A DNA stretch of 64,000 nucleotides, from the NCBI GenBank assembly GCA_038247415.1, contig JBBRUX010000003.1:74013-138012 (forward strand), written 5' to 3'. A model generated the notes under the pieces. That model was not told where the DNA came from. It was given only the letters and a program-made list of their open reading frames with translations, and searched no databases. This document shows positions 26,721-48,080 of the stretch, in pieces (position 1 is the stretch's first letter; the number at the start of each line of letters is the position of its first letter). The DNA is from Chitinivibrionales bacterium. Its GTDB lineage: Bacteria; Fibrobacterota; Chitinivibrionia; Chitinivibrionales; WJKA01. Both the position numbers and the translations under genes were made by a program.

Positions 26721-27329
26721 ATGAGCGCTATTTATGCTGTATGCTGTAATAAATCCCTTTTTCTCTGGATTAATGCACATGCGGCCTTTTTAGACGACAG
26801 AATAGGGGCTACAATAACTATTTTTGGAGATACCACGGTAGCTGCTGCACTCTATGCCTTTTTTATCGGCAAAAAGCCTGGTGTTTTGTGGGCAGCAATA
26901 CTTTCGGGAATTATAGGTGCACTGTTTACACATACGCTTAAACCCTTATTAGATTTACCTCGTCCTGCTGGCTTTTTTCTTCCAGATTCATTTCATATCA
27001 TTGGTCAAGTATTGCGGAAGCATGCCTTTCCTTCGGGTCATGCGCTTACGGTTTGGGCGCTTGCTGGAGTGATAGTATTGGTATATCGTTTGTGGTGGGG
27101 TAGTATTCTGCTTTTTGTTCTTGCAAGCCTTGTAGCACTCTCACGTATTGCCATTTGGGCACAGCGTATTATCTACCTTTTTCCAATTGGCGCATCATTA
27201 AGCCTCTTTTTTTATAAGACAGGGTACCCAAGTGTAAAAGGGGTTCAGTACATAATTGCAGGAGGTTCCTTTTGCATTGGTATTGTCCTGTACAGAAAGT
27301 TGTGGGGTAAACAATTCATTTTCGGCTAA
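26721..27329 (+). CDS. PAP2-family membrane phosphatase lacking motif 3 (possibly inactive)
   Basis: KPLLDLPRP and FPSGH are present; SR is followed by IAIWAQR instead of xxxxxHxxxD. Confidence 0.65.
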   Translation: MSAIYAVCCNKSLFLWINAHAAFLDDRIGATITIFGDTTVAAALYAFFIGKKPGVLWAAILSGIIGALFTHTLKPLLDLPRPAGFFLPDSFHIIGQVLRKHAFPSGHALTVWALAGVIVLVYRLWWGSILLFVLASLVALSRIAIWAQRIIYLFPIGASLSLFFYKTGYPSVKGVQYIIAGGSFCIGIVLYRKLWGKQFIFG

Positions 27330-27375
27330 GGTTTAAGTAGGTTGTAGTTAAAGACATTAACTCTAAGGAGCACAT

Positions 27376-28353
27376 ATGGAATATCGCAGACTCGGCAATT
27401 CTGGTCTTAAAGTAAGCGCGTTGTCACTCGGCTCGTGGGTAACTTTTGGTCGTCAAGTTTTCTTTGACGACGCCGTTGCTCTGATGAGCATGGCATATGA
27501 TGCAGGTGTTAATTTTTTTGACAATGCAGAAGGCTATGAGGCAGGGCTTTCGGAGACGATTATGGGAGAGGCTTTAGCACGGCTAGGATGGCGGCGCGAT
27601 TCTTATTGTGTATCAAGCAAAGTTTTTTCCGGATGCGTGCCACATCCAACAGTCTTGCAGCGAGGACTGTCTCGCAAGCACATAATGGACGCTTGTCATC
27701 AGGCACTCAAGCGGCTGCAGGTTGAGTATCTAGACTTGTACTTTTGTCATCGTCCCGATAAAGATGTTCCCATGGAAGAAATTGTTACCACCATGCATAC
27801 GCTTGTCATGCAAGGAAAAATTTTATATTGGGGAACATCGGAATGGCCTGCAGTGGATATCATGCAAGCATATGGGATTGCAAAAGCACTGCATATAACC
27901 CCTCCCACAATGGAGCAGTCGGAATATAACATGTTTGCACGCACGCGCATCGAGAAAGAATATGCGCGTTTGTATAGTGATGCAGGCATTGGAACTACGG
28001 TGTTTTGTCCTCTTAATTCAGGTGTTTTAACAGGAAAATATAACGAAGGTATCCCTGCTGATTCACGCATTGGTATGGCTGGTTTTGAGTGGCTTAAAGA
28101 TATGCTTGTAAGCGATGAAGGAAAATCGCGGATTGAAAAAGTGAAAAAGCTATCCGTTATTGCACATGATCTTGGAATATCCATGACGAGTCTTGCGCTA
28201 GCATGGCTGCTTAAAAATCCGCATGTGAGTACTATTATTTTAGGTGCATCTAAAATGGTACAACTCGAAGAAAATTTAAAATCGGTTGCCGCTGTCCCGC
28301 TTTTAAACGAAAGCATCATGAAAGATATCGAAACGATATTGCAGAATCTTTAA
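27376..28353 (+). CDS. Aldo/keto reductase (Kv-beta-like)
   Basis: RRLGNSGLKVSALSLGSWVTFG, FFDNAEGY, LDLYFCHRPD, YWGTSEW. Confidence 0.93.
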   Translation: MEYRRLGNSGLKVSALSLGSWVTFGRQVFFDDAVALMSMAYDAGVNFFDNAEGYEAGLSETIMGEALARLGWRRDSYCVSSKVFSGCVPHPTVLQRGLSRKHIMDACHQALKRLQVEYLDLYFCHRPDKDVPMEEIVTTMHTLVMQGKILYWGTSEWPAVDIMQAYGIAKALHITPPTMEQSEYNMFARTRIEKEYARLYSDAGIGTTVFCPLNSGVLTGKYNEGIPADSRIGMAGFEWLKDMLVSDEGKSRIEKVKKLSVIAHDLGISMTSLALAWLLKNPHVSTIILGASKMVQLEENLKSVAAVPLLNESIMKDIETILQNL

Positions 28354-29435
28354 TTTGATGGAGGGGGAAAAAACCTATCTAATCGCGCGAAGATAGATTT
28401 GTCCCCTTCCAAAACAATTTTCTTTTGAACGAGAGCATCTCGTACATTAATTTGGCGCGTAAAAACTCCTGCCCATGTGGTACTTTCTGCCACAACAAGA
28501 AGGTCGGGATTGGCTTTTTTCTCCTCTGTTCTAATACAGGTTCCCTTGTTAATAACAATGCACACATGATAGTTGATATTAGGGAAATCAAACTGAAGTG
28601 TTGCCTTCATTTTCTGAGTAGCCAAAGGATCTATTGATCGTGCCATTTCGCGCATGAGGATGCGAACATCCGTTGTTACTCGTTCACGTACTGCCTGCGG
28701 ATTTCTCCGGTCTTCCCCCATTGCGTTTACATGTTCCCAATAAATATCCGAATACGCTCTAAAATCATCGATATCCGATGCAAGCGGAATAGCCGCTTGT
28801 TCAAGTGTTTCGGCACTCATGAGTCCCTGTGAAGCCAGTTCAAAGCCCGCGCGAATCGTTGCAGTTTCTAATAACTTAATAGATTTTGGCTTTGCAAGCT
28901 CAAATTGTAAGAGAAAAGATTCATCTCTTTTGAGTAAACCGACAAATTCCATGCTCATTGCATCTGCAAAGAGTTCTAGAGTATTACGCAGACCTTCAAA
29001 GTTTCCAAGACCTTTAAGCGCGCCCACAGAAATTGCAGCAAGCTTTTTAGGCCAGTAGTGTGGAAATCGTAAATTGTTGCAAACAAGGTTTTTTGGCGTT
29101 TGCTTAAAACCAGGTTGCGTGAGGGGAAGTGTTCTATCGAGAAACGTTTTCATGATACCACTCACCGAATAAGCATATAATGGTGTTGACAAGAGAACGC
29201 ATTCTGCATTTTTAAATTCCTCAAGAAGTGTCGCCATCGAATCTTTATGAATGCAACGTCCGGGTGTTTCTATCCAACAGGTGTAGCATCCATTGCACGG
29301 ACGAACATTAAGGTCGGCTAAACGATACTCGATAATTTCGGCATGCGCATCGCGACAACCTTTAAGAAACAAATCGGTTATGTGATCGGTAAATCCTTCT
29401 TTACGGGGATTTCCTCGGATCAAAAGAATTTTCAT
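28350..29435 (-). CDS. Iron-sulfur flavoprotein/flavodoxin fused to a C-terminal SCP2 lipid-binding domain
   Basis: GNPRKEGFT, C..C..CW..TPG.C, STPLY..VSG..KTFLDR; C-terminal LQFDF...PDL.......W......DAL...KI..EGD. Start MKILL at 29435. Confidence 0.8.
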   Translation of the reverse strand: MKILLIRGNPRKEGFTDHITDLFLKGCRDAHAEIIEYRLADLNVRPCNGCYTCWIETPGRCIHKDSMATLLEEFKNAECVLLSTPLYAYSVSGIMKTFLDRTLPLTQPGFKQTPKNLVCNNLRFPHYWPKKLAAISVGALKGLGNFEGLRNTLELFADAMSMEFVGLLKRDESFLLQFELAKPKSIKLLETATIRAGFELASQGLMSAETLEQAAIPLASDIDDFRAYSDIYWEHVNAMGEDRRNPQAVRERVTTDVRILMREMARSIDPLATQKMKATLQFDFPNINYHVCIVINKGTCIRTEEKKANPDLLVVAESTTWAGVFTRQINVRDALVQKKIVLEGDKSIFARLDRFFPPPSN

Positions 29436-29896
29436 GATAATCCTTCCATCATGGAAAGGGTGAGCGATCCTGATGCGATAAGCTTTTTGCCGCAAAGTGC
29501 TTCGACTGAGTATCCAAAAAGACGGTCAAAAGATTTTGTAAGAATGGCCGACAATCGTAATGTTTCTTGTGGAAGTGCCGGAGCATGAAATTTCATGGAT
29601 GCCGCTGCTAAAAAAAAGATTGTTGGTTTTTCTGAGGTGGTTTCGCCTTGCAAGACTTTAGAAAACCCCCAGAGGAGTCCACTGGTTTGTGCTAATGCAT
29701 CGGTAATTAAAACGCCTGGCATGATTGGTTTTTCGGGAAAGTGTCCTGCAAACCATACTGCATTTGGATTGAGGTAAAAAGTTGTTACTATCGATCGATC
29801 TTGTGTAATGGAAATAACCTCGTCGACAAAAAGAAAGGGGGGGCGGTGTGGCAAGATGGCCATTATTTCTTCTTTGGAGAATTTTTGTTGTGTCAT
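29432..29896 (-). CDS. FabZ/FabA-like hotdog (3-hydroxyacyl-ACP) dehydratase
   Basis: LPHRPPFLFVD, FAGHFP..PIMPGVLITDALAQ. Confidence 0.88.
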   Translation of the reverse strand: MTQQKFSKEEIMAILPHRPPFLFVDEVISITQDRSIVTTFYLNPNAVWFAGHFPEKPIMPGVLITDALAQTSGLLWGFSKVLQGETTSEKPTIFFLAAASMKFHAPALPQETLRLSAILTKSFDRLFGYSVEALCGKKLIASGSLTLSMMEGLS

Positions 29897-29898
29897 AG

Positions 29899-30702
29899 CT
29901 ACTCCTTGCGGGCAGAATTATCGAGTGTTTGTAAACAAGATGCGATTTGTTTGCGAATGCGATCGGCAAATGCGCCAGGACTTTCGGTTGCGTTTGAAAA
30001 GCATGGCGGATAAAAAAGAATGTTGCAGTTGATAGTTTTTTTTGGGAAAATACTGTTCATCGATTTTGTCATAAAGGGAATATCGGTATGGATGACAACA
30101 GGAATAACGGGAAGGTTCATTTCTTTAGCGATTCTAAAGGCAAAATCTTTGAAGGTAAGCATTTTTATGGTGCTACTTCGTGCCCCTTCGGGGAAAATGA
30201 GAAGGTTATGTCCATTTTCTAGTGCTTTTTTGCAGGCATTGTGCGCACGGGAAAGATTAGCCACACTATGAGGAGAAACCCCAATAAAATTCAGGTGCTT
30301 TACGAAATAAGAATAGAGGGGAAGGTTAGCATATTTTTGCTTAATGATGACAGCGCACTCTGGAATTATACCTAAAAGTAGTGGCCCGTCGAGCTTTCCG
30401 CGATGGTTTGCAACATAAATTGCAGGTTTGGTAACACGTGTTTGATTGTCTCGGCAGATATTGACAATGCGATAGAATTTTAAATAAGGAAGATATGCTT
30501 GTGTCAAAAAGTGGCAGTACCAGGTAAAGAAAGCTGAAATAGATTGCGGCTTAACAATGCCTGTTACAAGAAGTATAGAGATGATTGGACCGCCAAGGAG
30601 TACACATAAAAACGTGCTCATATAATAACCGAAATAGCCAATAAGCAGATAGAAAAAGTGCATTTTTGAATGTACTGAAGCTCCTTGTGCACTCTTTACC
30701 AT
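29899..30702 (-). CDS. PlsC-like lysophospholipid acyltransferase
   Basis: VANHRGKLD (NHxxxxD), IFPEGARS, FK..AF..A....PVIPV. Probable start at 30702. Confidence 0.88.
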   Translation of the reverse strand: MVKSAQGASVHSKMHFFYLLIGYFGYYMSTFLCVLLGGPIISILLVTGIVKPQSISAFFTWYCHFLTQAYLPYLKFYRIVNICRDNQTRVTKPAIYVANHRGKLDGPLLLGIIPECAVIIKQKYANLPLYSYFVKHLNFIGVSPHSVANLSRAHNACKKALENGHNLLIFPEGARSSTIKMLTFKDFAFRIAKEMNLPVIPVVIHTDIPFMTKSMNSIFPKKTINCNILFYPPCFSNATESPGAFADRIRKQIASCLQTLDNSARKE

Positions 30703-30706
30703 AGTG

Positions 30707-32434
30707 TTAAGTAAGTATGCAGTCTTGAGGTGTGGGTGGTTCGAGCCGCTTTTCGGTGCCGAAGGCCCATTCTTTACTGAGCCCACGTACAACGGTTTTG
30801 TAGGCGTCCCCCTCTATTATAATTGAATCCTGTGGATATTTGTTGACTAAAATAGAATAAAGGCACACTGCTTTTTCGAGGCCGTCGCCTCTGCCAAAAT
30901 TCCAGATTTCATCGGGTTGTGCAACGCGGGTTCCATCGTAGATAGATCCGTTTTCAAGCGCATTCAATCTGTTTGCAATGGTATTTGGGTCAGCATGCTC
31001 TGTTGCAGAAACGCACACAGGATTGCGTTCGACGGCTGCTTTCATAAAAGGTTTCCAGGGTGCAATACGCATGTCCCGGTAAGCCATGAATGCTAAATCA
31101 GCAATGGGGTGGCTTGTTCGAATCTCTTTAAGTTTTTCTATGACTTCGAGATTGTTTTTGCATGAATCGATCTCGATTGGTTGACTAGGAACGAATGATC
31201 GCGTTGAAGATTCTGGAAGTCGTGGAGTAATGCGGCAAAATTCAACAAGCTGTGTTATCACATTGTCGACATTGAAGCACTTGTGGCACAGTTGGCGTTT
31301 TAGATCATCGAGATCTGCATTGGTATCGATAGAAACGGGTCGCTTTTTAAAGTAGGTTTCTAGTTCGTCAATGAGCATCCGATTTTCTATAGGCGTAGGA
31401 TAAAATTCATCTTCATCAATTTCATGCAGCAAAGTTGCACGGGAATCGTCGCTTACGCGAGAACGACTGCTATGTTCGTAGGTATAAACCTTTTCTGCTT
31501 CGATATAGCGGGGCTTACCACAACACGAATGCGTAAATTGAAAACATTTTTGAAGCGAAGAATGCTCGCGTAAAAAATTTGCGAGAATTTCAAACGTAAT
31601 ATCTGTTTTAAGAAACGTTCCAAGTTTTTCTTCAAATCGTTTGTAATCATCGGGATTCATGGTTGCTTCTGGATAGAGCGTATGAACATAGCCTGTGCTA
31701 TTAACTACCATGGTAGCGCGCTCGTGTCGCAGGGCACGTTGAGCTTTAACCGATAGCTCGGTGCCATTAAACCACATGTTTTTGGTAACAATACGCCGAT
31801 TATTGGTAAGGATTCCATCTTTACAATCGATAAAATTTTGCGAATGAAGGGGTGTAGCCACCATGAATATGTTTCGAAGCGAAACCCCTGCAACTGCAAA
31901 CAGCGCCGAAGCATACAATGCAGCTAATGATACACATTCGCCAGCACCTGTGAGATATTTTGGTTTGTGTTTGAATGCTACCATTGCTTCTGCGGTTTCT
32001 GTTTTCCAGTAAGGAATAATATCGGTTGTGTATTTATCGAGGCCGAAATGTCGGCGGATATCGATATCGAAATAATACTTGTCACCTTCGTAGCCAAAAA
32101 GGGCGTTGCTTTGTGAGAGTGTTTTTTCGTCTATGAAGCTTGTAAATCGGGCAAGCTCTTTTTGTTTTGTAGTAAGTCCCCAGGTGTCTAGGTCAAGATT
32201 AAAAGTGAAATGATCGAGTATGTATTGTTTAAGTCTGAGGATACGACGATATTCGTTAAGTTTGTCGAGTTTGTCAAACCATGAATCTTGTTTCCATTGC
32301 CACAAAAGGGGAGACATTATATTGGCAAGGGTAAGCGCGTACATGATTTCGGGGAAAATGAAAATTTCCATATCAGACAAGGTTATTGCCGATGAATATT
32401 TTTCGAGCGATTCTTTTGAATTCGGATTATACAT
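30707..32434 (-). CDS. Conserved hypothetical protein, possible transglutaminase-like fold
   Basis: 575-aa ORF with GAGECVSL, PLHSQNF and a C-terminal PDEIWNFGRGDGLEKA motif. Confidence 0.6.
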   Translation of the reverse strand: MYNPNSKESLEKYSSAITLSDMEIFIFPEIMYALTLANIMSPLLWQWKQDSWFDKLDKLNEYRRILRLKQYILDHFTFNLDLDTWGLTTKQKELARFTSFIDEKTLSQSNALFGYEGDKYYFDIDIRRHFGLDKYTTDIIPYWKTETAEAMVAFKHKPKYLTGAGECVSLAALYASALFAVAGVSLRNIFMVATPLHSQNFIDCKDGILTNNRRIVTKNMWFNGTELSVKAQRALRHERATMVVNSTGYVHTLYPEATMNPDDYKRFEEKLGTFLKTDITFEILANFLREHSSLQKCFQFTHSCCGKPRYIEAEKVYTYEHSSRSRVSDDSRATLLHEIDEDEFYPTPIENRMLIDELETYFKKRPVSIDTNADLDDLKRQLCHKCFNVDNVITQLVEFCRITPRLPESSTRSFVPSQPIEIDSCKNNLEVIEKLKEIRTSHPIADLAFMAYRDMRIAPWKPFMKAAVERNPVCVSATEHADPNTIANRLNALENGSIYDGTRVAQPDEIWNFGRGDGLEKAVCLYSILVNKYPQDSIIIEGDAYKTVVRGLSKEWAFGTEKRLEPPTPQDCILT

Positions 32435-32636
32435 GAGTTATTCTCCACGAGGAATGAGATTGAACCAGTTCGGTTGCAGGAGCCTTAAAAATAGCGTATT
32501 TTGTTAAACCATTTATTGAGCTACAGTACACCACTTTGAAAGCGGTGTCGATTATATCTATAGGCCTGTCTACGAATGTGGAAGGCCTTGTTAAAAAAAT
32601 ACATTCCGGAAAATATCCAAGAATCGATAGAGATCT

Positions 32637-35600
32637 ATGAAAACTTTGGGAATTTGTTTTGGAGCATCAACGATTTCAATCGTGGAGCTTGAGTATGCTC
32701 ATGAAATAAAAACAATTATAAAAACTACGCGGATTGTTCATGAAGGCAATCCATTGCAGGGTCTTTCGGATTGGTTTAAAACCATTAATCCGGAGGAATT
32801 TAACCATGTTGCAGTAACAGGCCGTTCCATGAGAGATCATGTTGAGGCCGCAAGCATCTCCGAACCCGAAGCTATTGAAGAAGCTCTGGAGTATGCCTAT
32901 GGTGAGGGGCCATTTCCAACCGTTGTAGTAAGCCTTGGCGGAGAAACCCAGATCGCCTACCAAATATCCAAAACAGGCACCATTGATGCCGTTTATTCTG
33001 GAAATAAATGTGCGAGTGGAACAGGTGAATTTTTTTTGCAACAAATTCGTCGTATGGGTTTGTCTCTTGACGATGCGGTAGAGATGGCGCGTAAAGGCGA
33101 GGCTCATAAAATAGCTGGACGATGCAGCGTGTTTTGCAAAAGCGATTGTACCCATGCACTTAATAAAGGTGAGAGCAAAGAAAATGTGGTGGCTGGTCTG
33201 TGTGCCATGATGGCTGATAAAATTGTTGAATTGATCAAAGATCTTCCTATCGTCGGTATTGGGCTGATTGGTGGAGGGTCACAAAATGACGCCATGATTC
33301 GCTACCTGCGAAATACTTATTCGGATGTAAATGTCGCTCGCCAGGCGATAGTTTTTGAGGCTCTGGGAGCTGCTCTTTGGGCTGGCAAAAAAGGCAGCGG
33401 ACCCTTGCCCAAGCCGCTCGCATCATTTTTTCGTCCTGTCAAATCGAGTTTTGGAACGCATGCTCCTCTTAAAAATGCATTGTCTTTGGTCCGGTTCTCT
33501 GAGTCGCACGTATCTATGCCAATGCCAGGCGACGAGTGCGTGATTGGGCTTGATGTTGGCTCGACGACTACAAAAGCTGTTCTGATGCGGCGCGCTGATT
33601 CTTCTATCCTCGCTTCAACCTATTTACGGACGTCGGGAAATCCGGTTGCTGCCGCGATATCGTGCTATTCTGCTTTACAGAGTCAGGTACATTCTACCCC
33701 ACTACGGTGCGTTGGCCTTGGCGTTACCGGTTCTGGTCGACATATTGCGGCACTGCATGCGTCAACAGACACAATCATCAACGAAATAGTTGCACATGCT
33801 ACGGCAGCTGCGTTTTACGATCCGCAGGTAGATACGATCTTTGAAATTGGTGGACAAGATGCAAAATATACCTTTTTGAGCAATGGAATTCCATCAGACT
33901 ATGCTATGAATGAAGCGTGCAGCGCGGGGACAGGTTCTTTTTTAGAGGAAGCTGCTTTCGAATCGCTTTCGGTTACTACAGGGGAAATTGGAGATCTTGC
34001 TATGGAGGGAATGCGCCCCCTCAATTTTACCGATCAATGCTCGGCATTTATTTCCAGTGATATTAAGCGGGCTATTCAGGAAAAAATAGATCGAAACGAT
34101 ATTTTAGCGGGATTAGTATACTCTATTTGTCTTAACTATCAGAATAGGGTTAAAGGGTCGCGGCCCGTGGGGAAAAAAATATTCATGCAGGGAGGGGTCT
34201 GCTATAATAAGGCTGTTCCGGTTGCTATGGCATCGCTTTTGCAATGTGAAATTATCGTCCCCCCCGATCCTGGTCTTTCGGGCGCAGTTGGTGTTGCTTT
34301 GCAAACTTCCCGCAGACTTACACGAGGTTCTATTGAGCCCAAAGAATTCAAACTCGAAGATCTCATTTCGAGAACCGTTGCCCATGAAGGATCATTTGTT
34401 TGTCAGGGGACCAAAGGGGGGTGCGATCGCAAATGCGCCATTCAAAAATATCGTATTGCTGGCGAGTTGGTTCCTTTTGGAGGAGCGTGCAACAAATATT
34501 ATAATCAACGTCACAATATTTCCGTAGATACCGATGTGAGAGATCTTGTTGCTGTTCGTCAACACCTGGTTTTTGAACAATTCGGAATAACGGGACATGC
34601 TGCCGATGCTTCTGTTCAGCGTCAAGAAACGGTAGGGATTTCACGGTCATTTCTTGCGCATTCACTATTCCCTTTGTATTCGCATTTCTTTGCATACATG
34701 GGTTTTAATGTTGTAGTGTCGGATAAGATCGACCCGCAAGGGCTGGCGCGAACACTTGCATCGTATTGCCTACCGGTTGAAATTGCGCATGGTAGTTTTC
34801 TCAATGTGCTAAAGCAGAAGCCCGACTATATTTTTTTGCCTCAGGTTATGCAGCTGCCTGTACCCAATGTTCCAACGTATAGTCGACTATGTGTTTTTGT
34901 TCAGGGGGAGCCCTATTACCTAGAAACAACATTTAGGGATGATATCGCAAAGGCTGGGGTAAAGATTCTCCGTCCGGTTTTGCGCATGGAAACAGGTTTT
35001 ATGCAAGCATGCGAAACGCTCGTGGCGATGGCGATGACTATGGGCGTTGACAAAAAAAATGCGACTCGGGCCTTTGAACATGCAGTTTCCATGCAGCACG
35101 CATGCGATAATGAAATGCGTGTTTACGGCAAGCAAGCACTCGAATATTTAGCAGTGCATCCGAGCGAAGTTGGTATTGTCCTTTTTGGGAGGCCGTATAA
35201 TGCCTTTACATCCGATGCCCACATGGGCATTCCCAAAAAAATAGCCTCGCGCGGGTATTATGTGATACCACTAGACATGTTGCCAGCAGATAGGTATTCG
35301 GTAGATGAAAAAATGTTTTGGGCGATGGGGCAAAAAATTATGAAGTCGGCGCAATTTGTTAAAGATACGCCGAATCTTTTTGGCGTTTTTGTAACTAATT
35401 TCAGCTGTGGACCAGATTCGTTTCTTCTTGGATTTTTTCGCACCTGCATGGGCGATAAGCCCTCTCTCACCCTAGAGCTAGACCATCATACCGCAGACGC
35501 CGGTATCGATACGCGTATTGAGGCAGCAATCGATATTTTCAGGCATTGCGTCGAGAAAAAGAATCCTGATCTGGCGCTACCACAGGTGTATGTTCCGGCT

Positions 35601-36977
35601 AGGGTTGCCTTTACCAATGAAATCATGGTAACAGATTCGTACGGTAATCGAATGCCCATCGATGACCCTCGGGTTGAAGTTCTTCTTCCGTCAATGGGAA
35701 CCTATGCAACCGAAATTGCTGCAGCCGTTCTGCGTTCACGGTCTATTCGCGCGCGTGCGTTACCTGTTATCGATGATGACGTATTTCTGGTTGGGCGAAA
35801 GAACACTTCTACCAAAGAGTGCTTGCCGTATATCATAACAACAGGGTCTTTTCTTTCTTATTTACATAATACAAAAAGAGATCCACACACGGTAACACTT
35901 TTGCTCATGGCGACAGGAGGCGGACCGTGCCGTTTGGGGCAATATTGCAGGGCTTTAGAGCAAAAAATTCATGCCGACCGATTGGTTAATGTTGCTGTTT
36001 TAACAATAACAGATGAGAATGGGTATGCTGGCCTTGGAGCGCGAACGCTTTTGCGTGCCTGGCAATCGCTTGTGGTGGCAGATGTTTTTAGCGATCTCAA
36101 AAGCATGCTGCAGGCCACCGCGCGCGATCCTGCAAAGGCACAGGAACTATTGCGGGAGTGCTGGACGCGTGTTGTGCGTTATTTCGATGGATCGTTATCT
36201 ATTCGGCTTTCAACGCTGCTTGGGACAATTGCAGAGCAGGTGGATGCGATCGAGCTCGATAGGAATCCTCGCGAGGTACCGGTCATTTCATTGGTTGGAG
36301 AAATCTTTGTACGGCGCGATGAGTTTTCTCGCAAAAACCTTATTGATTATTTGGAATCAAAAGGATTTATGGTACGTATTGCACCAATTTCAGAATACCC
36401 TTTGTATGGCAATTATGTTATTAACCAGGGGCTTGGCGAACGTAAGTTTACCATACAAGAAAAGGTTAAAATGCACCTCACTGCTCGAATTCAAGAGTGG
36501 TGGGAATGGAGAATAAAATCAATTTTTGGCGCAACGCGCTTATACCATCCGGAAATGATAGATATCGCCAAAACTATCAAAGGCGTAAAGCATATTATAG
36601 ACGAAAATTTTAGGGGGGAATGTATCCTTACGGTGGGTCTTGCTATGCGAGAAATTGCCGAATCTGCCTGCGGAATTATTTCAATTGGGCCCTTTGGCTG
36701 TATGCCTTCCCGAATGGCAGAAGCAATACTTAAAAAAGAAATGAATCCTTCGGGAAAAAAAAGAATGGCAACTGCAGGGCCAGAACATTCCGCTCTTGAT
36801 GATGTTGAGTCATTTCCCTTTTTGGCAATTGAGGCCGATGGCACGGCGTTTCCTCAATTAACGATTGCAAATCTGGAATCGTTTGTTTTAAAGAGCAGGG
36901 CAATGCATGCTCGCATGCAAGCAGTGCGCACAACCCATGAACGTCACCGTCGAAAACGACATGAACACAAATCTTAA
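32637..36977 (+). CDS. Fused CoA-substrate-specific activase/reductase (2x BadF/BadG + DUF2229-type domains; PlsA/Ger-like)
   Basis: KCASGTGEF, RCSVFCKSD, GLDVGSTTTK, EIGGQDAK, MNEACSAGTGS, GRPYN, NFSCGPDSF, GPCRLGQY, PFGCMP. Confidence 0.85.
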   Translation: MKTLGICFGASTISIVELEYAHEIKTIIKTTRIVHEGNPLQGLSDWFKTINPEEFNHVAVTGRSMRDHVEAASISEPEAIEEALEYAYGEGPFPTVVVSLGGETQIAYQISKTGTIDAVYSGNKCASGTGEFFLQQIRRMGLSLDDAVEMARKGEAHKIAGRCSVFCKSDCTHALNKGESKENVVAGLCAMMADKIVELIKDLPIVGIGLIGGGSQNDAMIRYLRNTYSDVNVARQAIVFEALGAALWAGKKGSGPLPKPLASFFRPVKSSFGTHAPLKNALSLVRFSESHVSMPMPGDECVIGLDVGSTTTKAVLMRRADSSILASTYLRTSGNPVAAAISCYSALQSQVHSTPLRCVGLGVTGSGRHIAALHASTDTIINEIVAHATAAAFYDPQVDTIFEIGGQDAKYTFLSNGIPSDYAMNEACSAGTGSFLEEAAFESLSVTTGEIGDLAMEGMRPLNFTDQCSAFISSDIKRAIQEKIDRNDILAGLVYSICLNYQNRVKGSRPVGKKIFMQGGVCYNKAVPVAMASLLQCEIIVPPDPGLSGAVGVALQTSRRLTRGSIEPKEFKLEDLISRTVAHEGSFVCQGTKGGCDRKCAIQKYRIAGELVPFGGACNKYYNQRHNISVDTDVRDLVAVRQHLVFEQFGITGHAADASVQRQETVGISRSFLAHSLFPLYSHFFAYMGFNVVVSDKIDPQGLARTLASYCLPVEIAHGSFLNVLKQKPDYIFLPQVMQLPVPNVPTYSRLCVFVQGEPYYLETTFRDDIAKAGVKILRPVLRMETGFMQACETLVAMAMTMGVDKKNATRAFEHAVSMQHACDNEMRVYGKQALEYLAVHPSEVGIVLFGRPYNAFTSDAHMGIPKKIASRGYYVIPLDMLPADRYSVDEKMFWAMGQKIMKSAQFVKDTPNLFGVFVTNFSCGPDSFLLGFFRTCMGDKPSLTLELDHHTADAGIDTRIEAAIDIFRHCVEKKNPDLALPQVYVPARVAFTNEIMVTDSYGNRMPIDDPRVEVLLPSMGTYATEIAAAVLRSRSIRARALPVIDDDVFLVGRKNTSTKECLPYIITTGSFLSYLHNTKRDPHTVTLLLMATGGGPCRLGQYCRALEQKIHADRLVNVAVLTITDENGYAGLGARTLLRAWQSLVVADVFSDLKSMLQATARDPAKAQELLRECWTRVVRYFDGSLSIRLSTLLGTIAEQVDAIELDRNPREVPVISLVGEIFVRRDEFSRKNLIDYLESKGFMVRIAPISEYPLYGNYVINQGLGERKFTIQEKVKMHLTARIQEWWEWRIKSIFGATRLYHPEMIDIAKTIKGVKHIIDENFRGECILTVGLAMREIAESACGIISIGPFGCMPSRMAEAILKKEMNPSGKKRMATAGPEHSALDDVESFPFLAIEADGTAFPQLTIANLESFVLKSRAMHARMQAVRTTHERHRRKRHEHKS

Positions 36978-38088: not shown

Positions 38089-38200
38089 TTTAGTTCAGCA
38101 TGTGGCAGGTATAAGCCCGTATGGTGTCATACGGGCTTATTTATTTATAGTTTCTCGAAGCTTTTTGCTTCAGTTTCATGTATCACAAAGGAGTTTGGCA

Positions 38201-38860
38201 ATGTTTTTAGAAGGAATTGTTCGGAAACCGGTTTCTGCGGTTCAATGGCAGGATTATCGTGCATCTAATACCGGTCTCATTACTGTATATGTTACGGATT
38301 CTGTATCAGAAATGCCTATACGCGAAGTACCCGAAGAATTCCCAACCGATGTTGTTCCCGACCCAAACTACGAAACGGGAACAGTTGGATTTTATGGTTG
38401 TTCACGAACAAAAATTAGAAGTACGTTACATAAGAGCCGTATTCGGTATATGTTTTTTATGGCAAAATATATGGGCACCCGTGATGAATTCGCAGATAAT
38501 TTTTATGTCAATGGGTTTTATCGGATTTCAAAATGGACCGAAGCCGTTAAACTCCATATGAGATATTTATCTGAACCTTCGTGCGCAAATTTAGATACGT
38601 GCACTGCGTTTCTCGCAGATGAGGTTCATTTTGTTTCGCTCGAGGATTCAATTGCTGTTACCAAAGAGGTCCTTTCGAAGTGGGGATTTTCTGGCGCGCT
38701 AACTCGACAGTCTCGCATTATTCTCGATGAAGAAAAAACCACAGAGCTACTTGCTCTCTTACGCGGTAAAGAGAATATAACTAAAGCCTACATCGAAGAA
38801 ACACGGCGTCTTGAGCCTACCGATCCCGAAGCGGAAGTTGATGAAGAGGAAGAAGAGTAA
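38201..38860 (+). CDS. Hypothetical protein
   Basis: ATG at 38201 after AAGGAG; own promoter and terminator; acidic tail. Confidence 0.75.
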   Translation: MFLEGIVRKPVSAVQWQDYRASNTGLITVYVTDSVSEMPIREVPEEFPTDVVPDPNYETGTVGFYGCSRTKIRSTLHKSRIRYMFFMAKYMGTRDEFADNFYVNGFYRISKWTEAVKLHMRYLSEPSCANLDTCTAFLADEVHFVSLEDSIAVTKEVLSKWGFSGALTRQSRIILDEEKTTELLALLRGKENITKAYIEETRRLEPTDPEAEVDEEEEE

Positions 38861-38932: not shown

Positions 38933-40684
38933 TTAAACGTCGGCAAAGAATGGTAAATGGGGGAGAAGGTCGCCAAGAACACGTTTGTTAAGATTGTGAA
39001 GCCATTCGTTGAGTTCTGTTGTAGTAGAAATAGCTTCTATATGAGAAACACTTTCGGCAGCATCTGCAAAGCTTGTTTTGGAGATGAGTTCTTTGAGTAC
39101 GGGAATGCATCGTGGAACTACTGAAAATCGCTTAAGTCCCATACCAATCAGCATAATGGTATGGAATGGATTGCCTGCCATTTCACCGCATATTGAAAGT
39201 GGCTTGCCATGATCGTTACTGATTTTTATCGCATTTTTAATAATTTTTAAAAAAGCTGGTTCAATAGGATTATAGAGATAGTTGACTTTTGCATTATTAC
39301 GATCCGCTGCACTTAAATACTGGATAAGGTCATTAGTACCAATTGATGCGAAGTCGATATCCTTCATAAAGGTATTCATTTCCAAAACAGCAAGCGGAAC
39401 TTCAAAAAGCACGCCGCATTTAGGCATGGGAACACCTTCTTCTTTGGCTACTTTGGCAATAAATTCACGTGCTTCCTGCCATTCGGTAACAGTTGTTACC
39501 ATAGGGATCATAATCGAAAACGGGCCATTGCCCCCGGCACGCAAAATTGAGGTGAGTTGGGCTTCAAAAATATCTTTACGTTCAAGAAAAATGCGGATTG
39601 CGCGCCATCCCATAAAGGGGTTGTATTCTGCTGGCATTTCAAAAAAATCGGGAACCTTATCGCCACCAATATCCATAAGGCGGATTACGGTTGGTTTTTT
39701 GCCCATGGTTTGAAGAATTTGCGAATAATATGCAGTCTGGATATCACTGGGTGGAAAACTTTTTCTGTTGGTAAGTAGGTATTCGCTTCTGACAAGTCCT
39801 ATGCCATCGGCTCCGTATTCGTTGGCAAGCTCTGCATCTTCGGGCAAAGAGACATTAGCCAAAACACTGATTGCAATGCCGTCGCGTGTGTAGGCTGGAC
39901 GGTTCCATTTGGCTTTGAGTTCCTGGAGCTTTTCTTCGGTATGTGATGTTTTTGGGTGGCGGTTTAGTGTGGCAGCCGTTGGTCTAATGTAAACTTCACC
40001 TTTTGTTGCATCTACAAAAAGCTGGTCTCCGGGATGTATATGCTTGTTGAGATTTGGAATGCCAGAGAGTACTGGAATCGAGTAAGAACGTGCCAAGATT
40101 GCTGCATGTGAAGTTTTGCCACCGCTTGCTGTTATGACTGCAGCAATTTTAGATTTGTCGTATGAGAGAATATCGGATGGAGTAAACATTCTGGAAACAA
40201 TAAGGACAACCGGTTCCAGAAATGACTTTGCCCTTCCATCGTCCTGATTGATATAGGAGACAAGTTTTTCGCAAATTTCAACCATATCGGAACTTCGTTC
40301 TTTAAAGTACGATGTCCCTGCAGAATCGAATCGCTTGATAAAATCGTTTGAAACCAAGCGAATTGACGTTTCGAGGTCGTAAAGTTTAGTAGAAATAGTT
40401 TCAACAACCTGCCCAATAAAGGCAGGGTCATCGAGGATATGTTCGTAAATATTGAGAATGGAGGCGTCTAGAGCCGTGGAACCATCGGAATTCGTGAGAT
40501 AAATGCGGTAGTCCTGCCGCGCACGTTCACGAATCTCGTTAAAACGCATTACCTGATCGCCAACATCTTGACGGGAAATGGTAACACGGGAAGGTTGCTC
40601 AATTGCCCGGCCTACAAAAAAAGCTTTGCCAACGCCCTGCCCTGGGGCTACAGTTATACCAGTGAGTTTTGACGCTTTATTCAT
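38933..40684 (-). CDS. ptsI: Phosphoenolpyruvate-protein phosphotransferase (PTS enzyme I)
   Basis: TSHAAILARS phospho-His motif, GIGLVRSE, DIGGDK, NPFMGWRAIR, SIGTNDL, ICGEMAG. ATG at 40684 overlaps the upstream stop. Confidence 0.93.
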   Translation of the reverse strand: MNKASKLTGITVAPGQGVGKAFFVGRAIEQPSRVTISRQDVGDQVMRFNEIRERARQDYRIYLTNSDGSTALDASILNIYEHILDDPAFIGQVVETISTKLYDLETSIRLVSNDFIKRFDSAGTSYFKERSSDMVEICEKLVSYINQDDGRAKSFLEPVVLIVSRMFTPSDILSYDKSKIAAVITASGGKTSHAAILARSYSIPVLSGIPNLNKHIHPGDQLFVDATKGEVYIRPTAATLNRHPKTSHTEEKLQELKAKWNRPAYTRDGIAISVLANVSLPEDAELANEYGADGIGLVRSEYLLTNRKSFPPSDIQTAYYSQILQTMGKKPTVIRLMDIGGDKVPDFFEMPAEYNPFMGWRAIRIFLERKDIFEAQLTSILRAGGNGPFSIMIPMVTTVTEWQEAREFIAKVAKEEGVPMPKCGVLFEVPLAVLEMNTFMKDIDFASIGTNDLIQYLSAADRNNAKVNYLYNPIEPAFLKIIKNAIKISNDHGKPLSICGEMAGNPFHTIMLIGMGLKRFSVVPRCIPVLKELISKTSFADAAESVSHIEAISTTTELNEWLHNLNKRVLGDLLPHLPFFADV

Positions 40685-43086
40685 GCGCGCGTAGCAACTT
40701 TCCAGATTGTTCGGGCATATTCTAAAACAGCCGAATCCGCTGAGAATTTGCAGACACATGCCATAAGCTGAATGCTATCCTCTTGCCATGAGGCAGTATT
40801 TTGCCAAGCTTTGGAAATACCTTCTTGCACACAGATATAGTCGGAAAAATCGAGTAATGTAAAGTATTCGTCGTTGTCTCGTAGTGAAGCAAGTAAAGGA
40901 AATATAGCGTGTCCATCGGGAATCGTGCTCAAATGATTGTCTAGAAATTCGAATATTTCGGAAAGAAGCGGGTTATCCCTGATTATTTCCCATGGTTTGT
41001 AATCGTGATGAGTAGGCATTGCTTGTAAAGTATGGCCAAAAACAAAAGGAAGCGCATTTTGACAAGATTCGGTTATTTCGGTATTGATGCCGCTATGACT
41101 TGCGATAGGAATTGCGCCATTGATAATAAACTTAACAATGCTCGTTCCACAGGCCTCCATGCCAGGTGTTGCGATTTGTTCGGTTAAATCTGCGCCAGGA
41201 ATAACGACCTCGGCCAAAGACATGCCATAGTCTGGGATGAAAACAATTTTTAGCTTGTTGTTAATGCTTGCATCGTTATTTATTATTGAAGCAACTACAT
41301 GGATTAAATGTACTATTTGTTTAGCAAGTCGATCGGACGGGGCTGCTTTTCCGGTAAATATATGAACCCGATCGGGGCTGCTATCGTTGCCTTGTTTGAT
41401 GTTGAGATAACGATATAAAATTCCCAAAACATTAAGAACTTGTCGTTTATACGGATGAATCTTTTTGGCTTGAATATCGAAGAGTGCCTCGGGATTGACA
41501 TCGAGATTGCAGAGTGTCTTGATTGTTTTGCATAAATGCAATTTTGCTATTTTTTTGACGCGGGAGCACTCGTGTTGAAAGCTAGCATCGCGAGCTAGTG
41601 GTGCCAGCAAGGAAAGCTTGGAGGCATTAGTGATCCAATCGGTACCAATTGCGTTGCTAATAATAGTGCCCAGATTTGAATTTGCACCTAGGAGCCAACG
41701 CCTATGCATTATGCCATTAGTAACATTTGTAAATTTATTGGTGTTAACAAGCGCAAATTCCGGAAAGATCTTGGTGAGCAGTGCCGTGGATTGTTCTCGC
41801 GAAACACCATTGACAGAAGATGATCCTAATACGGCAAGATGTGCCATGCGTATTCGCTTGACTTCACCTTCTTCGACCAGTGAGAGGGCTGGAATACAAG
41901 CCGTTAGACGCTCGTCGTTGCGTTTGCGTATTGAATCGAGATGTCGTTGATTAATTTCGAAAATAATTTCGATATGACGTGGAAAAATTTCGGCAAGTTT
42001 ATAGATTGGCCATGATTCACAATCATCTTTGCCTACAGCATGACTGGTATACGCAAAAACATTGCGGGTAACGCGCCAAGCGTCATTCCACTCCATGCCC
42101 TCTACATCAACTAAAATTCTTAGAAGTTCGGGAACTGCAATTGCACAACCGCTTCCATTAATTTGAATAACTACTTTGCTATCCAGCGTAGAAAGATCGG
42201 TGTTTTGAGCTTTGAATCGCCGTACAATGTTTTGCAATGTTGCGCTTACAAAGAAAAACTGCTGCTTGAGCCGTTGTTCTGTTCCCCGAACTACATCTTC
42301 GTCGGGAAAAAGCATTCGTGTTACGGTGCTTGATTGAGACTTTTCTTCGCATGCGCGAGTATAATCACCATGGTTTTGATAATCGGGCAGAAATTTTTCT
42401 GAGGCCCGGGCAGACCAGAGTCGTAAGGTGTTGACTGTTTCGCTGTTGAAGCCAGGGATAGGCATGTCATAGGGAATTGCAATGACATTTTCTGTGTCTT
42501 CCCACATTCGCGGTTTAGCATTATCTCTTTGGCCCGTAACTGTTCCATAAAAATTCACCGTGCAGGCATATTCCGGACGGATAATTTCCCAAGGGTGTCC
42601 TTTGTGAAGCCAATCGTAAGGTGCCTCGGACTGCGCATCTTCTTTAATTTCTTGCCGGAAAGCACCATAATCGTATCGAAGTCCATACCCTGTTGCTGCG
42701 ATGCCCAGAGTTGCAAGCGAATCTTGAAAGCAGGCTGCTATGCGACCCTTTCCACCGTTGCCAAGGTCGAAGTCATCTTCTTGAGCAAAAATGTCATCGA
42801 GCGAAAACCCAAGATCGCGAGCTGTTTCTTGTACACCCTCTAAAAGACCTGCATATATAATGTTGTGTTTAAGGCTTTTTCCAAGAACGTATTCCATCGA
42901 AAGGTAGTAAACCCTCTTGATATTGGAATCGCGATATCGTTTTTGTGTTTCGATCCATTTGTCGACCATTTCACTGCGAACAGCGTATGCCAGGGCCATA
43001 TATTTATCGTAATTTGTAGCAGTGTCATTATCCTTGGCAAGGAAATAACGGAGGTACCGGTGGTAGGCGAGTTTAATACTTTCCAT
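40681..43086 (-). CDS. glgP: Glycogen/starch phosphorylase homolog (GT35) with divergent active-site motifs
   Basis: VYYLSMEY, LGNGG.GR.AACF.DS, NTLRLWSA, RLKQQ.FF, TNGI..RRWL, H.YKRQ, GKAAP, PLP-lysine region EACGTSIVKF..NGA. Confidence 0.8.
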   Translation of the reverse strand: MESIKLAYHRYLRYFLAKDNDTATNYDKYMALAYAVRSEMVDKWIETQKRYRDSNIKRVYYLSMEYVLGKSLKHNIIYAGLLEGVQETARDLGFSLDDIFAQEDDFDLGNGGKGRIAACFQDSLATLGIAATGYGLRYDYGAFRQEIKEDAQSEAPYDWLHKGHPWEIIRPEYACTVNFYGTVTGQRDNAKPRMWEDTENVIAIPYDMPIPGFNSETVNTLRLWSARASEKFLPDYQNHGDYTRACEEKSQSSTVTRMLFPDEDVVRGTEQRLKQQFFFVSATLQNIVRRFKAQNTDLSTLDSKVVIQINGSGCAIAVPELLRILVDVEGMEWNDAWRVTRNVFAYTSHAVGKDDCESWPIYKLAEIFPRHIEIIFEINQRHLDSIRKRNDERLTACIPALSLVEEGEVKRIRMAHLAVLGSSSVNGVSREQSTALLTKIFPEFALVNTNKFTNVTNGIMHRRWLLGANSNLGTIISNAIGTDWITNASKLSLLAPLARDASFQHECSRVKKIAKLHLCKTIKTLCNLDVNPEALFDIQAKKIHPYKRQVLNVLGILYRYLNIKQGNDSSPDRVHIFTGKAAPSDRLAKQIVHLIHVVASIINNDASINNKLKIVFIPDYGMSLAEVVIPGADLTEQIATPGMEACGTSIVKFIINGAIPIASHSGINTEITESCQNALPFVFGHTLQAMPTHHDYKPWEIIRDNPLLSEIFEFLDNHLSTIPDGHAIFPLLASLRDNDEYFTLLDFSDYICVQEGISKAWQNTASWQEDSIQLMACVCKFSADSAVLEYARTIWKVATRA

Positions 43087-43897: not shown

Positions 43898-44044
43898 CTC
43901 TCGCCGCTGCCCGGCCACTTTAGTGGATACTATCCTGAACATGTGCGGCAATGCGCAGCTTGTTTGCCTCAAGATTTGAAAATTGCTTGTCGCATATGTC
44001 GCTTAGTCGGGCAAGAACTTTGCGATTGACATTTTCTTGATTTT

Positions 44045-45193
44045 CTATAAATTCACCACTACTTTAAACAAGTTGTTCTCTCTGTCATCAAAGAAATCAA
44101 TACTTGGATATGCCTTAAGTGCTCTTCTGATACCGTTACCGAGGCCACGATAAGGCAATAGCTTTGTTGCAAACGAAGCAAGAATAGGATTGCGGATATT
44201 TGAATTTCCTGATTTAATATTTTGAACCGTCAAATTGTTTGGTAAATGCCCAGGGCTTATTATTTCGACCCTGTTTTCAAATAAGAATACGCGTATCGGA
44301 GCAGAAATAAAATAATCTCTATGAATTAAAGCATTAGCAATAAGCTCTTCAAATACAATTATAGGAACAACCATTTCGCCGGTAGAGTTAATGGTTTTAT
44401 TTGTTTGGCTATGGCGATTGTTAACTCTAATAAACGAAAGTACCTGCTGAAAAACATCGGAAACCTTACCAGTAATATCTCTGTTGTCCAAATATTTTTC
44501 TTCGTCAATATCCATACCGGGATATGCTACCGCTTTTACAATGAAAGTCGGCAAACGAAAATGTGCTTGTTTTGCAAATAATAATGCACCTGCGATGTTT
44601 AAATTTGAAGCCTTTGCAAGGTTCATGTTTTCCAGAATAATTTGCAAGGGATTTTCTTGTGTGTCTAATGTTTCACCGTATTCTTTTTGAAAGAATGCTT
44701 CAAAATAGGGCAAGTCAATGTCTGCAATAGTTAAGCCATTAGCGGGTATTTCATCCCCGTGTACTAACCCCGCTGCCTGAAACATTCCTTGAACTTCTTC
44801 TCGGCTTGTAACTCTTCTTTTATCGCTTCCATTTTTGACCCAGATTGCACCTTTATTATCCATGTACGGTTTACTGATGCCATCCGGTATTGTTAGAACA
44901 ATTACTAAACCATCAGGATGTGAAATGTTTTCTGAAATTGGGTTTACTGGTGGCCTAACAGATTGTGTAGAGGCGTTCGATATGAGTTGGTTAAGCCGAC
45001 CAATATCATCCTTCGATAAACCTGTAACTTTCCATGTCTTGTCTTCAACTCCTATGATAATTCTACCACCACCAGTATTACTAAATGCAACAATTTCTGC
45101 TGCAAGCGAATCAACCTTATGAAAATTTTCTTTGTATTGGTTCCCACTGTCTTCGCCATGGTTTAATAACTCTATAAGTTCTGAGGTTTCCAT
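44045..45193 (-). CDS. AlbA_2 (Schlafen-like) domain + HATPase_c_4-type protein
   Basis: GEDSGNQYKE, VAFSNTGGGRIIIGVED, EELIANALIHRDY, RVEIISPG.LP, IRNP.LA, GLGNGIRR. Confidence 0.85.
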   Translation of the reverse strand: METSELIELLNHGEDSGNQYKENFHKVDSLAAEIVAFSNTGGGRIIIGVEDKTWKVTGLSKDDIGRLNQLISNASTQSVRPPVNPISENISHPDGLVIVLTIPDGISKPYMDNKGAIWVKNGSDKRRVTSREEVQGMFQAAGLVHGDEIPANGLTIADIDLPYFEAFFQKEYGETLDTQENPLQIILENMNLAKASNLNIAGALLFAKQAHFRLPTFIVKAVAYPGMDIDEEKYLDNRDITGKVSDVFQQVLSFIRVNNRHSQTNKTINSTGEMVVPIIVFEELIANALIHRDYFISAPIRVFLFENRVEIISPGHLPNNLTVQNIKSGNSNIRNPILASFATKLLPYRGLGNGIRRALKAYPSIDFFDDRENNLFKVVVNL

Positions 45194-47828: not shown

Positions 47829-48080
47829 TGGAACATCTCCTTTTATTTGTTGAGATAAAAATTGTCCATAATTGTCATTTTAAAGAACCTTGGCAAATTC
47901 GTTTGCACTTAGTACTGTATTATACAATCCAATATCTTACAATGTTCTTTGTGGTCACGATCTTGTGCCTCGTGCCGGTCTGAAGCGACTTTTTCGGTGA
48001 TGCAGCGAAATACTTGGCTCGGGACACCTCTTTCCCCTAAAGCAAGAGAATTCTTATTTGCTGCAGAGCCCATTTGTTTC

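Follow-up and report, generated by a model that had tools for sequence, protein, structure and literature searches.

A PlsA/Ger-family gene, its transglutaminase-fold neighbour and a fatty-chain cassette: a probable junction of two conserved modules in a Chitinivibrionales bacterium

The locus

The window analysed here is a stretch of 64,000 nucleotides of a Chitinivibrionales bacterium (assembly GCA_038247415.1, contig JBBRUX010000003.1, hereafter C3:74013-138012), the genome of which comprises 3.84 Mb in 99 contigs and is 96% complete; the closest relatives of the window proteins are labelled as Chitinivibrionales or as metagenome-assembled genomes (MAGs) of Fibrobacterota. Within the window, a gene encoding a 1446-aa protein of the PlsA/Ger family, here called type A, diverges from a row of four tightly packed genes on the opposite strand. 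In our view, this locus is probably a lineage-specific junction of two independent conserved modules, i.e., the type A gene with the adjacent gene for a 575-aa protein, and a cassette formed by the three remaining genes. The features are listed below, each with the evidence on which it is described.

32637..36977, plus strand: type A protein of the PlsA/Ger family, 1446 aa (open reading frame, Pfam, NCBIfam)
32435..32636, no strand: divergent spacer of 202 bp between the type A gene and the 575-aa gene (base-by-base reading)
30707..32434, minus strand: 575-aa protein with two predicted transglutaminase-fold domains (open reading frame, AlphaFold2 (AF2) model, VIA-align)
29899..30702, minus strand: PlsC/LPLAT-type acyltransferase, 267 aa from the ATG, with a hydrophobic N-terminus (PF01553, motifs)
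29432..29896, minus strand: FabZ/FabA-like hotdog dehydratase, 154 aa (PF07977, ApeI-like model, His52/Asp66 pair)
28350..29435, minus strand: flavodoxin-like FMN domain with a four-cysteine (Cys4) motif, joined to SCP2, 361 aa from the ATG (Pfam)

As read from the sequence, the minus-strand genes are separated by 4 nt and 2 nt and then overlap by 4 nt (ATGA). A preliminary description of the locus had reported these genes, gaps of 4, 2 and -4 nt and a divergent spacer of about 200 bp, all of which agree with the open reading frames and the sequence. The ATG starts fit the relatives, because flavoprotein homologues are also 361 aa long and align from residue 1. The gene arrangement is real and not an assembly artefact, since contigs of three runs (X1, X3 and X4) from two studies, X4 belonging to another study than the others, extend from the 575-aa gene across the junction into the acyltransferase gene; the sole differences listed between the run contigs and the window are located at 33005 (X3) and 35472 (X1), and none lies at or near the junction.

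The type A protein and other PlsA-like systems

The type A protein is divided into the following parts.

Residues about 1-260: ATPase 1
Residues about 300-560: ATPase 2
Residues 589, 596, 600 and 618: four-cysteine linker (C589, C596, C600, C618)
Residues 665-882: DUF2229
Remainder: PlsR-like C-terminal part

Pfam and NCBIfam models assign BcrAD_BadFG (PF01869) to two stretches of the protein (196.9 bits) and DUF2229 (PF09989) to a third (154.2 bits). In a search of PDB sequences, residues 302-565 match HgdC, HadI and MbdQ, i.e., activators of 2-hydroxyacyl-CoA dehydratases and a benzoyl-CoA reductase subunit. The last 556 residues (891-1446) have no Pfam match even at E <= 10, and this tail aligns to a separate 421-aa PlsR-like protein encoded on contig C26 of the same genome (E 8e-14). 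The two BcrAD_BadFG stretches, DUF2229 and the PlsR-like tail recognised through the C26 protein thus uphold the activase-activase-reductase-reductase build that had been proposed at first sight. Fourteen cysteines are invariant in 23 homologues, the Clostridium ones included, and because all 14 of these shared cysteines are kept in type A, it looks, judging from its sequence, like a working enzyme.

The likeness of this architecture to that of single-gene PlsA and of Ger, also noted in the preliminary description, is confirmed by two reports (PMC12838417, PMC13159169). Known PlsA/PlsR systems include C. perfringens CPE1194/1195 and the single-gene PlsA proteins of E. faecalis, L. cremoris and B. 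longum subsp. suis. According to PMC12838417, PlsA has the order Act1-Act2-Red1-Red2 and is encoded by single genes of 4,248-4,920 bp, and the characterised PlsA proteins are 48-55% identical to one another. Type A has the same module order and a similar length (1446 aa, compared with the gene lengths above), and its Cys ligands are conserved with Clostridium homologues. However, it is only 23-26% identical to those homologues and belongs to the other main branch of the tree; a closer, split homologue is encoded on C26 of this genome.

Ger, the glycerol ester reductase, has been described as a 'modified PlsA' and is represented by T. maritima Tmari_0479 and D. alkenivorans SHJ90043. In PMC13159169, a 'BBD' core (two PF01869 plus PF09989) is reported in all alkyl-ether producers, whereas the C-terminal parts vary; the tail carries short HGD-D (PF06050) and DUF2229 matches in the arrangements BBDHDDH or BBDHDHDH, with many variations. 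Type A contains the 'BBD' core, comes from an anaerobic organism and shares its half of the tree with homologues from Desulfobacterota MAGs. However, its tail (891-1446) gives no PF06050 match even at E <= 10, and the best Desulfobacterota homologues are only 26-33% identical to it.

The genome holds three PlsA-like systems, namely the fused type A protein of the window and two split systems on other contigs.

C26:27875-34875 (locus L151): split pair of a plsA-like gene (1051 aa, activase-DUF2229) and a plsR-like gene (421 aa)
C15:21278-27094 (locus L152): third, very divergent split system, consisting of a 1120-aa protein, a protein of about 470-526 aa and a 345-aa open reading frame without a Pfam match

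After the C26 pair come genes for a PF01553 acyltransferase (228 aa) and for a HAD-IB hydrolase (225 aa). The comparison set contained five type A relatives, paralogues from the phylum, four fused proteins from family f13 (a family of 151 genomes), the Clostridium homologues (two copies from C. magnum and one from C. ragsdalei), a Dethiobacter MAG and four Desulfobacterota MAGs. Identities were compared among 23 proteins, the four Desulfobacterota homologues entering only the tree, which was inferred by maximum likelihood from a shared part of 1000 residues (27 rows, LG+G4, SH-aLRT), with the Clostridium homologues as proxies for the characterised enzymes. Type A is 55-59% identical to its five orthologues, 43-46% to type B (a second fused paralogue that is present in many relatives and absent from this genome) and 35-36% to a third group; its identity to all other proteins, among them the C26 pair of its own genome, the four f13 proteins and the C. 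magnum and C. ragsdalei homologues, is 23-26%. The C26 pair shares 48-49% identity with the f13 proteins (each of the four genomes has a single fused homologue) and 36-38% with the Clostridium homologues. The tree is split, with an SH-aLRT support of 100, into a branch containing the C15 system (on a long branch of its own), Clostridium, C26 and f13, and another containing type A, type B, the Desulfobacterota forms, Dethiobacter and two others.

Thus, with grouping with the Clostridium homologues as the proxy for orthology, the C26 pair of this genome falls inside the clade of these homologues and type A falls outside it, which does not bear out the placement of type A among the plasmalogen synthases. 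From these sequence relationships, type A is a deep paralogue in the PlsA/Ger family. The C26 pair is the better candidate for an ordinary plasmalogen synthase, because characterised PlsA/PlsR includes the Clostridium system, with which C26 groups, and because characterised PlsA proteins are themselves 48-55% identical; it is therefore likelier, by sequence, that the plasmalogen synthase of this genome is encoded by C26. The literature consulted did not confirm that Fibrobacter forms plasmalogens, and the present reading does not draw on it.

The 575-aa protein

The protein encoded next to type A had been described as transglutaminase-like. It has no Pfam or NCBIfam match at all, PF01841/Transglut_core included. 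Its family, one of anaerobes, is very large: among 8000 scored candidates, 6053 are relatives, all of them nameless or 'hypothetical' and none with a Pfam domain, and at least 579 matching stretches occur in a collection with one genome per species. Members are found in Fibrobacterota, Thermodesulfobacteriota, Kiritimatiellia, Verrucomicrobiota, Lentisphaerota, Clostridia and other taxa. Identity across phyla amounts to 48-63%, with more than 120 invariant columns in a 26-sequence alignment; Cys167, at the start of a helix, and His197, on the next strand, are invariant in all 26 sequences.

The AF2 model of the protein has a mean pLDDT of 88.2 and a pTM of 0.87. A Foldseek search of the model against the PDB returned nothing at E <= 0.001 (all E values were above 0.1, and the weak rows were headed by LapG), and a profile search of the PDB gave nothing below E 0.4. 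With VIA-align, nearly all of the top 36 rows are transglutaminase-like or papain-like Cys enzymes with Z values from 8.6 to 4.2, which correspond to the 'middling' range of this tool. Residues of about 10-276 match BDI_1141 (3kd4, Z 8.6, rmsd 3.4, 142 aligned), LapG (4fgo, Z 7.7, rmsd 4.3, 148 aligned) and PNGase (2f4o, Z 7.3, rmsd 6.0, 186 aligned), and further XPC/Rad4, TglA, factor XIII, TG2/TG3 and arylamine N-acetyltransferases. Residues of about 456-575 match PeiW, PeiP, CPR-C4 and TgpA with Z values of 5.6-5.8. Weak leads from the Atlas pointed to Transglut_core and the CEP76-peptidase (0.80-0.83).

Because the VIA-align list is consistent and Cys167 and His197 are invariant, the transglutaminase label appears, on the basis of the model, to hold at the level of the fold; thus, the original wording stands with regard to the fold and the invariant Cys and His, whereas no Pfam or NCBIfam family backs it. 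The predicted protein shares with BDI_1141, LapG and PNGase (and, for the C-terminal domain, with PeiW/PeiP) a common fold with an invariant Cys at the start of a helix and a His on the next strand. It differs from bacterial transglutaminase-like Cys enzymes in having two such domains and in lacking any match at the sequence level. The C-terminal domain (about 456-575) has a Gly at what we take to be the place of the catalytic Cys, so that this second domain appears to lack one.

Outside Fibrobacterota, the surroundings of the 575-aa gene are of a different kind. Its neighbours in other phyla are unrelated housekeeping genes, for example, those for pyruvate kinase, FBP aldolase and glycogen phosphorylase, and its flanks revealed no recurrent theme (94 of 119 flanking open reading frames, members of families already scanned being excluded). 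In Kiritimatiellae and Verrucomicrobia, a conserved gene for a 477-aa protein is divergent to the 575-aa gene in 17 loci (L013, L046, L064, L072 and L074 among them); it was considered as a counterpart of type A and rejected, having no Pfam match and no likeness to type A. Genes for a patatin-like phospholipase, a radical SAM protein (LAM-like) and glycogen phosphorylase often occur near the 575-aa gene in loci of Kiritimatiellia and Verrucomicrobiota. A glycogen phosphorylase gene is also present in the window, at 40681-43086.

Pairing of the type A gene with the 575-aa gene

Of 80 loci found by way of the 575-aa protein, 12 have type A divergently upstream of the 575-aa gene, and each of the 12 carries the label Fibrobacterota or Chitinivibrionales; the outer flanks of these loci vary, and nothing else in them is conserved. 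Within the order, the 575-aa gene is present in 75 of 81 genomes (74 of 80 when the genome studied here is set aside), and type A is present in most of these; in the 215 genomes of the phylum that lie outside the order, the 575-aa gene was not found. According to the coordinates given, type A is divergent to the 575-aa gene and within about 1 kb of it in 44 of the 74 other genomes, representing six of nine families. Three further genomes have both genes on one contig at a distance of 3-9 kb, and the remaining genomes have them on different contigs, many of which are short.

The type A gene and the 575-aa gene are, then, a real, order-wide conserved divergent pair. It is this conserved divergent adjacency that hints at a functional link between the two proteins. 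No sign of a shared operator was seen in the divergent spacers, in that no 8-mer occurs in more than five of 13 type A/575-aa spacers and the shared 8-mers are A/T runs; in the promoter and terminator scan of the spacer, promoter-like sites appeared at chance rate. We found no published work that joins a plasmalogen synthase with a transglutaminase or describes this pairing; the sole neighbour of pls genes that we found mentioned is a TetR/AcrR regulator in E. faecalis (PMC9702350).

In one relative, a different arrangement was encountered (L144, G022:C10:6500-14500), with the 575-aa gene directly downstream of a type B paralogue on the same strand. This paralogue is 44% identical to the window protein and has one TAA inside the match, and the match to the 575-aa protein is in two pieces.

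The cassette and the ketosynthase cluster

The three genes that follow the 575-aa gene encode proteins whose classes were correctly named from the beginning. The acyltransferase matches PF01553 with 80.3 bits, and its motifs H100-x4-D105 and F170-P-E-G-x-R175 (i.e., HX4D and FPEGxR) are invariant in 19 sequences, in agreement with its description as PlsC-like; it remains below the TIGR00530 cut-off (71.5 vs. 102.95). The 154-aa protein is a FabA-like hotdog protein (73.2 bits) with His52 and Asp66 invariant in 19 sequences, and the label FabZ/FabA-like is therefore apt, with scores below both FabZ equivalog cut-offs (103.5 vs. 155.15 and 102.4 vs. 113). The acidic catalytic residue is Glu in FabZ and Asp in FabA; we take Asp66 to represent the FabA state rather than that of FabZ. 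Two other FabZ paralogues are encoded in the genome.

The 361-aa protein combines FMN_red (PF03358, 66.8 bits) with SCP2 (23.1 bits, cut-off 21.3) and also matches Alkyl_sulf_C (28.6 bits, cut-off 27). Its cysteines C47-x2-C50-x2-C53-x7-C61 are invariant in 21 sequences, a spacing that presumably resembles that of iron-sulfur flavoproteins (Isf). The protein thus fits, by sequence, an Fe-S flavoprotein of the FMN_red fold with a compact Cys4 motif and predicted cofactors, and its initial reading as an Fe-S flavoprotein-SCP2 fusion is supported by FMN_red, SCP2 and the invariant cysteines. The family is small, with 278 relatives; the named ones belong to Chitinivibrionales and carry the annotation 'multimeric flavodoxin WrbA/putative sterol carrier protein'. 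Among solved structures, the best match to the flavin domain is the flavone ene-reductase FLR (7D38, E 1.5e-8, residues 1-106). In common with FLR (PDB 7D38-7D3B), the protein has a flavodoxin/WrbA-like FMN domain followed by a C-terminal extension, and the match includes the Cys-rich stretch. However, only the first 106 residues match, and the C-terminal part here is an SCP2 lipid-binding domain, whereas the C-terminal extension of FLR forms the substrate pocket (PMC7862272).

Near-full-length flavoprotein-SCP2 fusions are found in 40 of the 81 genomes of the order. Neighbourhoods of 6.7-18.5 kb were read around the flavoprotein-SCP2 genes of 20 relatives. In 18 of these, the acyltransferase gene and the FabZ-like gene lie directly upstream of the flavoprotein-SCP2 gene in the same order as in the window, and in none of the 20 is type A or the 575-aa gene present; in none of the 39 other genomes with the fusion is the flavoprotein-SCP2 gene on the contig of the 575-aa gene. 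Instead, in relatives, the cassette follows rmlA-rmlC and convergently faces genes for FabD, FabG, a GcvT-like protein, a 98-aa acyl carrier protein (ACP) and two large ketosynthases (rmlA in 11 loci, rmlC in 10, FabD in 11, FabG in nine, the GcvT-like gene in seven, ACP in six and a ketosynthase in seven). None of these neighbour families (rmlA, rmlC, FabD, FabG, GcvT-like, ACP and ketosynthase) occurs at the window locus. The larger ketosynthase (1250-1313 aa) carries an N-terminal radical SAM domain, together with a B12-binding domain that was seen only in the copy of genome G066; in this radical-SAM-ketosynthase fusion, these domains are joined to a ketosynthase pair, and in relatives the fusion is followed by the second ketosynthase, of 781 aa. 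Cluster and cassette are adjacent, for example, on contig C3 of G066.

The fusion of radical SAM and ketosynthase, counted at E <= 1e-150, occurs in 41 of the 81 genomes. Thirty-eight genomes have both this fusion and the flavoprotein-SCP2, 38 have neither, two have the flavoprotein-SCP2 only and three have the ketosynthase fusion only, one of the latter with a flavoprotein fragment on the same contig. In five genera (g5, g9, g13, g15 and g24), sister genomes differ in the flavoprotein-SCP2 and the ketosynthase fusion together. The occurrence of the cassette follows that of the radical-SAM-ketosynthase cluster, not that of the PlsA-like gene. In the genome studied here, the parts of the pathway are scattered over four contigs, including C3, the contig of the window, which bears the cassette; the other parts are given below.

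C22:45894-49650 (L187:7892-11650): radical-SAM-ketosynthase fusion (copy of a relative: L186:8318-12259)
C17:16713-19822: ACP-GcvT-FabG-FabD
C4:75174-76604: rmlA-rmlC

The cluster is comparable to the FAS-like (fatty acid synthase-like) cluster of anammox bacteria (amxACP, amxFabZ; PMC10139942), in that FabZ is divergent in both. Of the chain-building functions, the ketosynthase cluster covers KS, ACP, KR and MAT, and the cassette adds DH and AT; because no enoyl reductase is evident among them, the flavoprotein-SCP2 is proposed to act as one. For FabV, no signal was obtained in the genome, and the FabV model gave no match in any control genome either; for FabI, no FabI-named model was among the best rows shown for the six short-chain dehydrogenase/reductase (SDR) proteins scanned.

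Interpretation of the locus

We consider it probable that the locus joins, in this lineage, two modules that are conserved independently of each other. The first would consist of the type A enzyme and its divergently transcribed 575-aa partner. Type A may be a self-contained, ATP-driven, oxygen-sensitive Fe-S enzyme of the PlsA/PlsR-Ger branch of the 2-hydroxyacyl-CoA dehydratase/benzoyl-CoA reductase family, in which two fused activator ATPases would deliver a low-potential electron via Cys-bound clusters to two catalytic modules; by analogy, it might reduce an ester bond of membrane lipids to an ether. It would then be a second enzyme of this kind beside the split plsA/plsR-like pair of C26. 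The 575-aa protein would be a cytoplasmic Cys-His enzyme, and it is reasonable to assume that it may carry out acyl or amide transfer, or hydrolysis, through a thioester at Cys167. The second module, the cassette, would be a part of an accessory fatty-chain pathway arranged around the B12-radical-SAM-ketosynthase fusion, to which a second ketosynthase, a dedicated ACP, the GcvT-like protein, FabG and FabD would also contribute. Within this pathway, the cassette would carry out the dehydration and hand the completed chain to a lipid acceptor, and the flavoprotein-SCP2 would probably perform the enoyl reduction as an FLR-like ene-reductase, with the SCP2 domain possibly holding the chain. In the genome studied here, the cassette would have moved to a place directly behind the 575-aa gene, with which it is probably co-transcribed.

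Several observations weigh against this reading. With regard to the pair, three genomes that are 96-98% complete (G058, G060 and G061) carry the 575-aa gene with only distant PlsA-like matches, another (G025) carries type A without the 575-aa gene, and in families f10 and f18-f21, proteins that are 37-57% identical to type A, which include both type-A-like ones and more distant members of its clade, are found without the 575-aa gene. In family f7, the pair is non-adjacent wherever both places are given (the gap in G067 is 3.5 kb), and in a Kiritimatiellae genome (G305) and an Atribacterota MAG (G300) that contain the 575-aa gene, no PlsA-like match was found; the unrelated neighbours of this gene in other phyla likewise speak against a tie to type A. 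With regard to the cassette, the co-occurrence counts overstate the number of events, because kin are not independent. The part of an enoyl reductase is a weak one for the flavoprotein-SCP2 in that its match to FLR spans 106 residues only, and this proposal is not forced, because the genome has a FabK-like gene (238 bits, cut-off 453). Type A itself could be orthologous to Ger or have a different substrate, its lipid substrate being assigned by analogy. Finally, the 4-nt spacing of the cassette could reflect a selected functional link that is invisible to conservation, although we regard a functional role of the junction in this single lineage as very unlikely.

It is conceivable, though doubtful, that type A is not a lipid enzyme but an ATP-driven reductase or dehydratase of a CoA thioester or another small molecule, and that the 575-aa protein acts on the same metabolite or is merely a syntenic housekeeping protein. 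This would accord with the low identity of type A to the clade that contains the Clostridium homologues, with the presence of three such systems in one genome, with the C-terminal 556 aa that no Pfam model recognises, and with the position of the 575-aa family beside genes of central metabolism in many phyla, also where no PlsA-like gene was found. However, type A retains the four-module build and every one of the 14 cysteines of the Clostridium clade, and none of its conserved neighbours is a CoA-transferase, a ligase or another gene of a CoA pathway. In addition, all enzymes of the fused build that have so far been characterised act on glycerolipid esters (PMC13159169, PMC12838417).

The preliminary description regarded the four-gene operon as a dedicated accessory set of the PlsA/Ger-like enzyme, which would supply a special acyl chain, its transfer and a lipid-binding electron carrier. 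The close packing of the genes (4, 2 and -4 nt), the 202-bp divergent spacer shared with the enzyme gene and the reality of this arrangement in independent contigs are in favour of such a set. The activator domains of such enzymes need a low-potential electron donor, a role for which the invariant Cys4 motif would suit the flavoprotein, and the second PlsA-like locus (C26) also adjoins an acyltransferase. However, the cassette lies near type A or the 575-aa gene in none of the 20 loci and in none of the 39 other genomes shares a contig with the latter, it occurs in 40 of the 81 genomes (compared with 75 of 81 for the 575-aa gene and most of these for type A), and it tracks the ketosynthase fusion instead. 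We therefore consider the accessory set unlikely. Of the neighbourhood conservation on which that proposal depended, the place of the 575-aa gene beside type A holds, whereas the adjacency of the other three genes is unique to this genome. Least probable of all is that the finishing genes of the cassette and type A share divergent control, with type A etherifying the radically modified chain and the 575-aa protein as a third partner, which, if true, would give this anaerobic bacterium of sediments a route dedicated to ether lipids of an unusual and perhaps methyl-branched kind.

The junction of two independent modules, which we prefer, bears on how such genes are interpreted. Ether lipids of bacteria serve as proxies for environment and climate, and homologues of PlsA/Ger are used to predict which bacteria make them. 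Because this genome has three deeply diverged systems, and its relatives have more, a 'PlsA/Ger' match cannot be read as one function. Within this context, the type A clade offers a defined and testable branch with a conserved transglutaminase-fold neighbour, and the family of this neighbour, although very large and highly conserved, has no entry in Pfam or NCBIfam. The cassette, in turn, would add three candidate finishing enzymes, including a possible new type of ene-reductase, to an uncharacterised radical-SAM-ketosynthase lipid pathway.

Neighbouring features of the window

Just past the operon, the window encodes a PAP2-family phosphatase (202 aa) and an aldo/keto reductase (325 aa) at 26721-28353. 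The aldo/keto reductase gene is convergent with the flavoprotein-SCP2 gene, and the ends of the two overlap by 4 nt; at the thresholds used, relatives showed neither the phosphatase nor the reductase in the vicinity of the cassette or of the pair. On the other side, a 252-aa open reading frame without a Pfam or NCBIfam match follows queA (38102-38860, plus strand); its relatives, which are 48-53% identical, occur in two Fibrobacterota loci (L003 and L078), in L078 also beside queA. Further along, positions 44001-48000 have a G+C content of 0.36-0.37, compared with about 0.44 elsewhere, and the sign of the GC skew flips there; this stretch may be an island.

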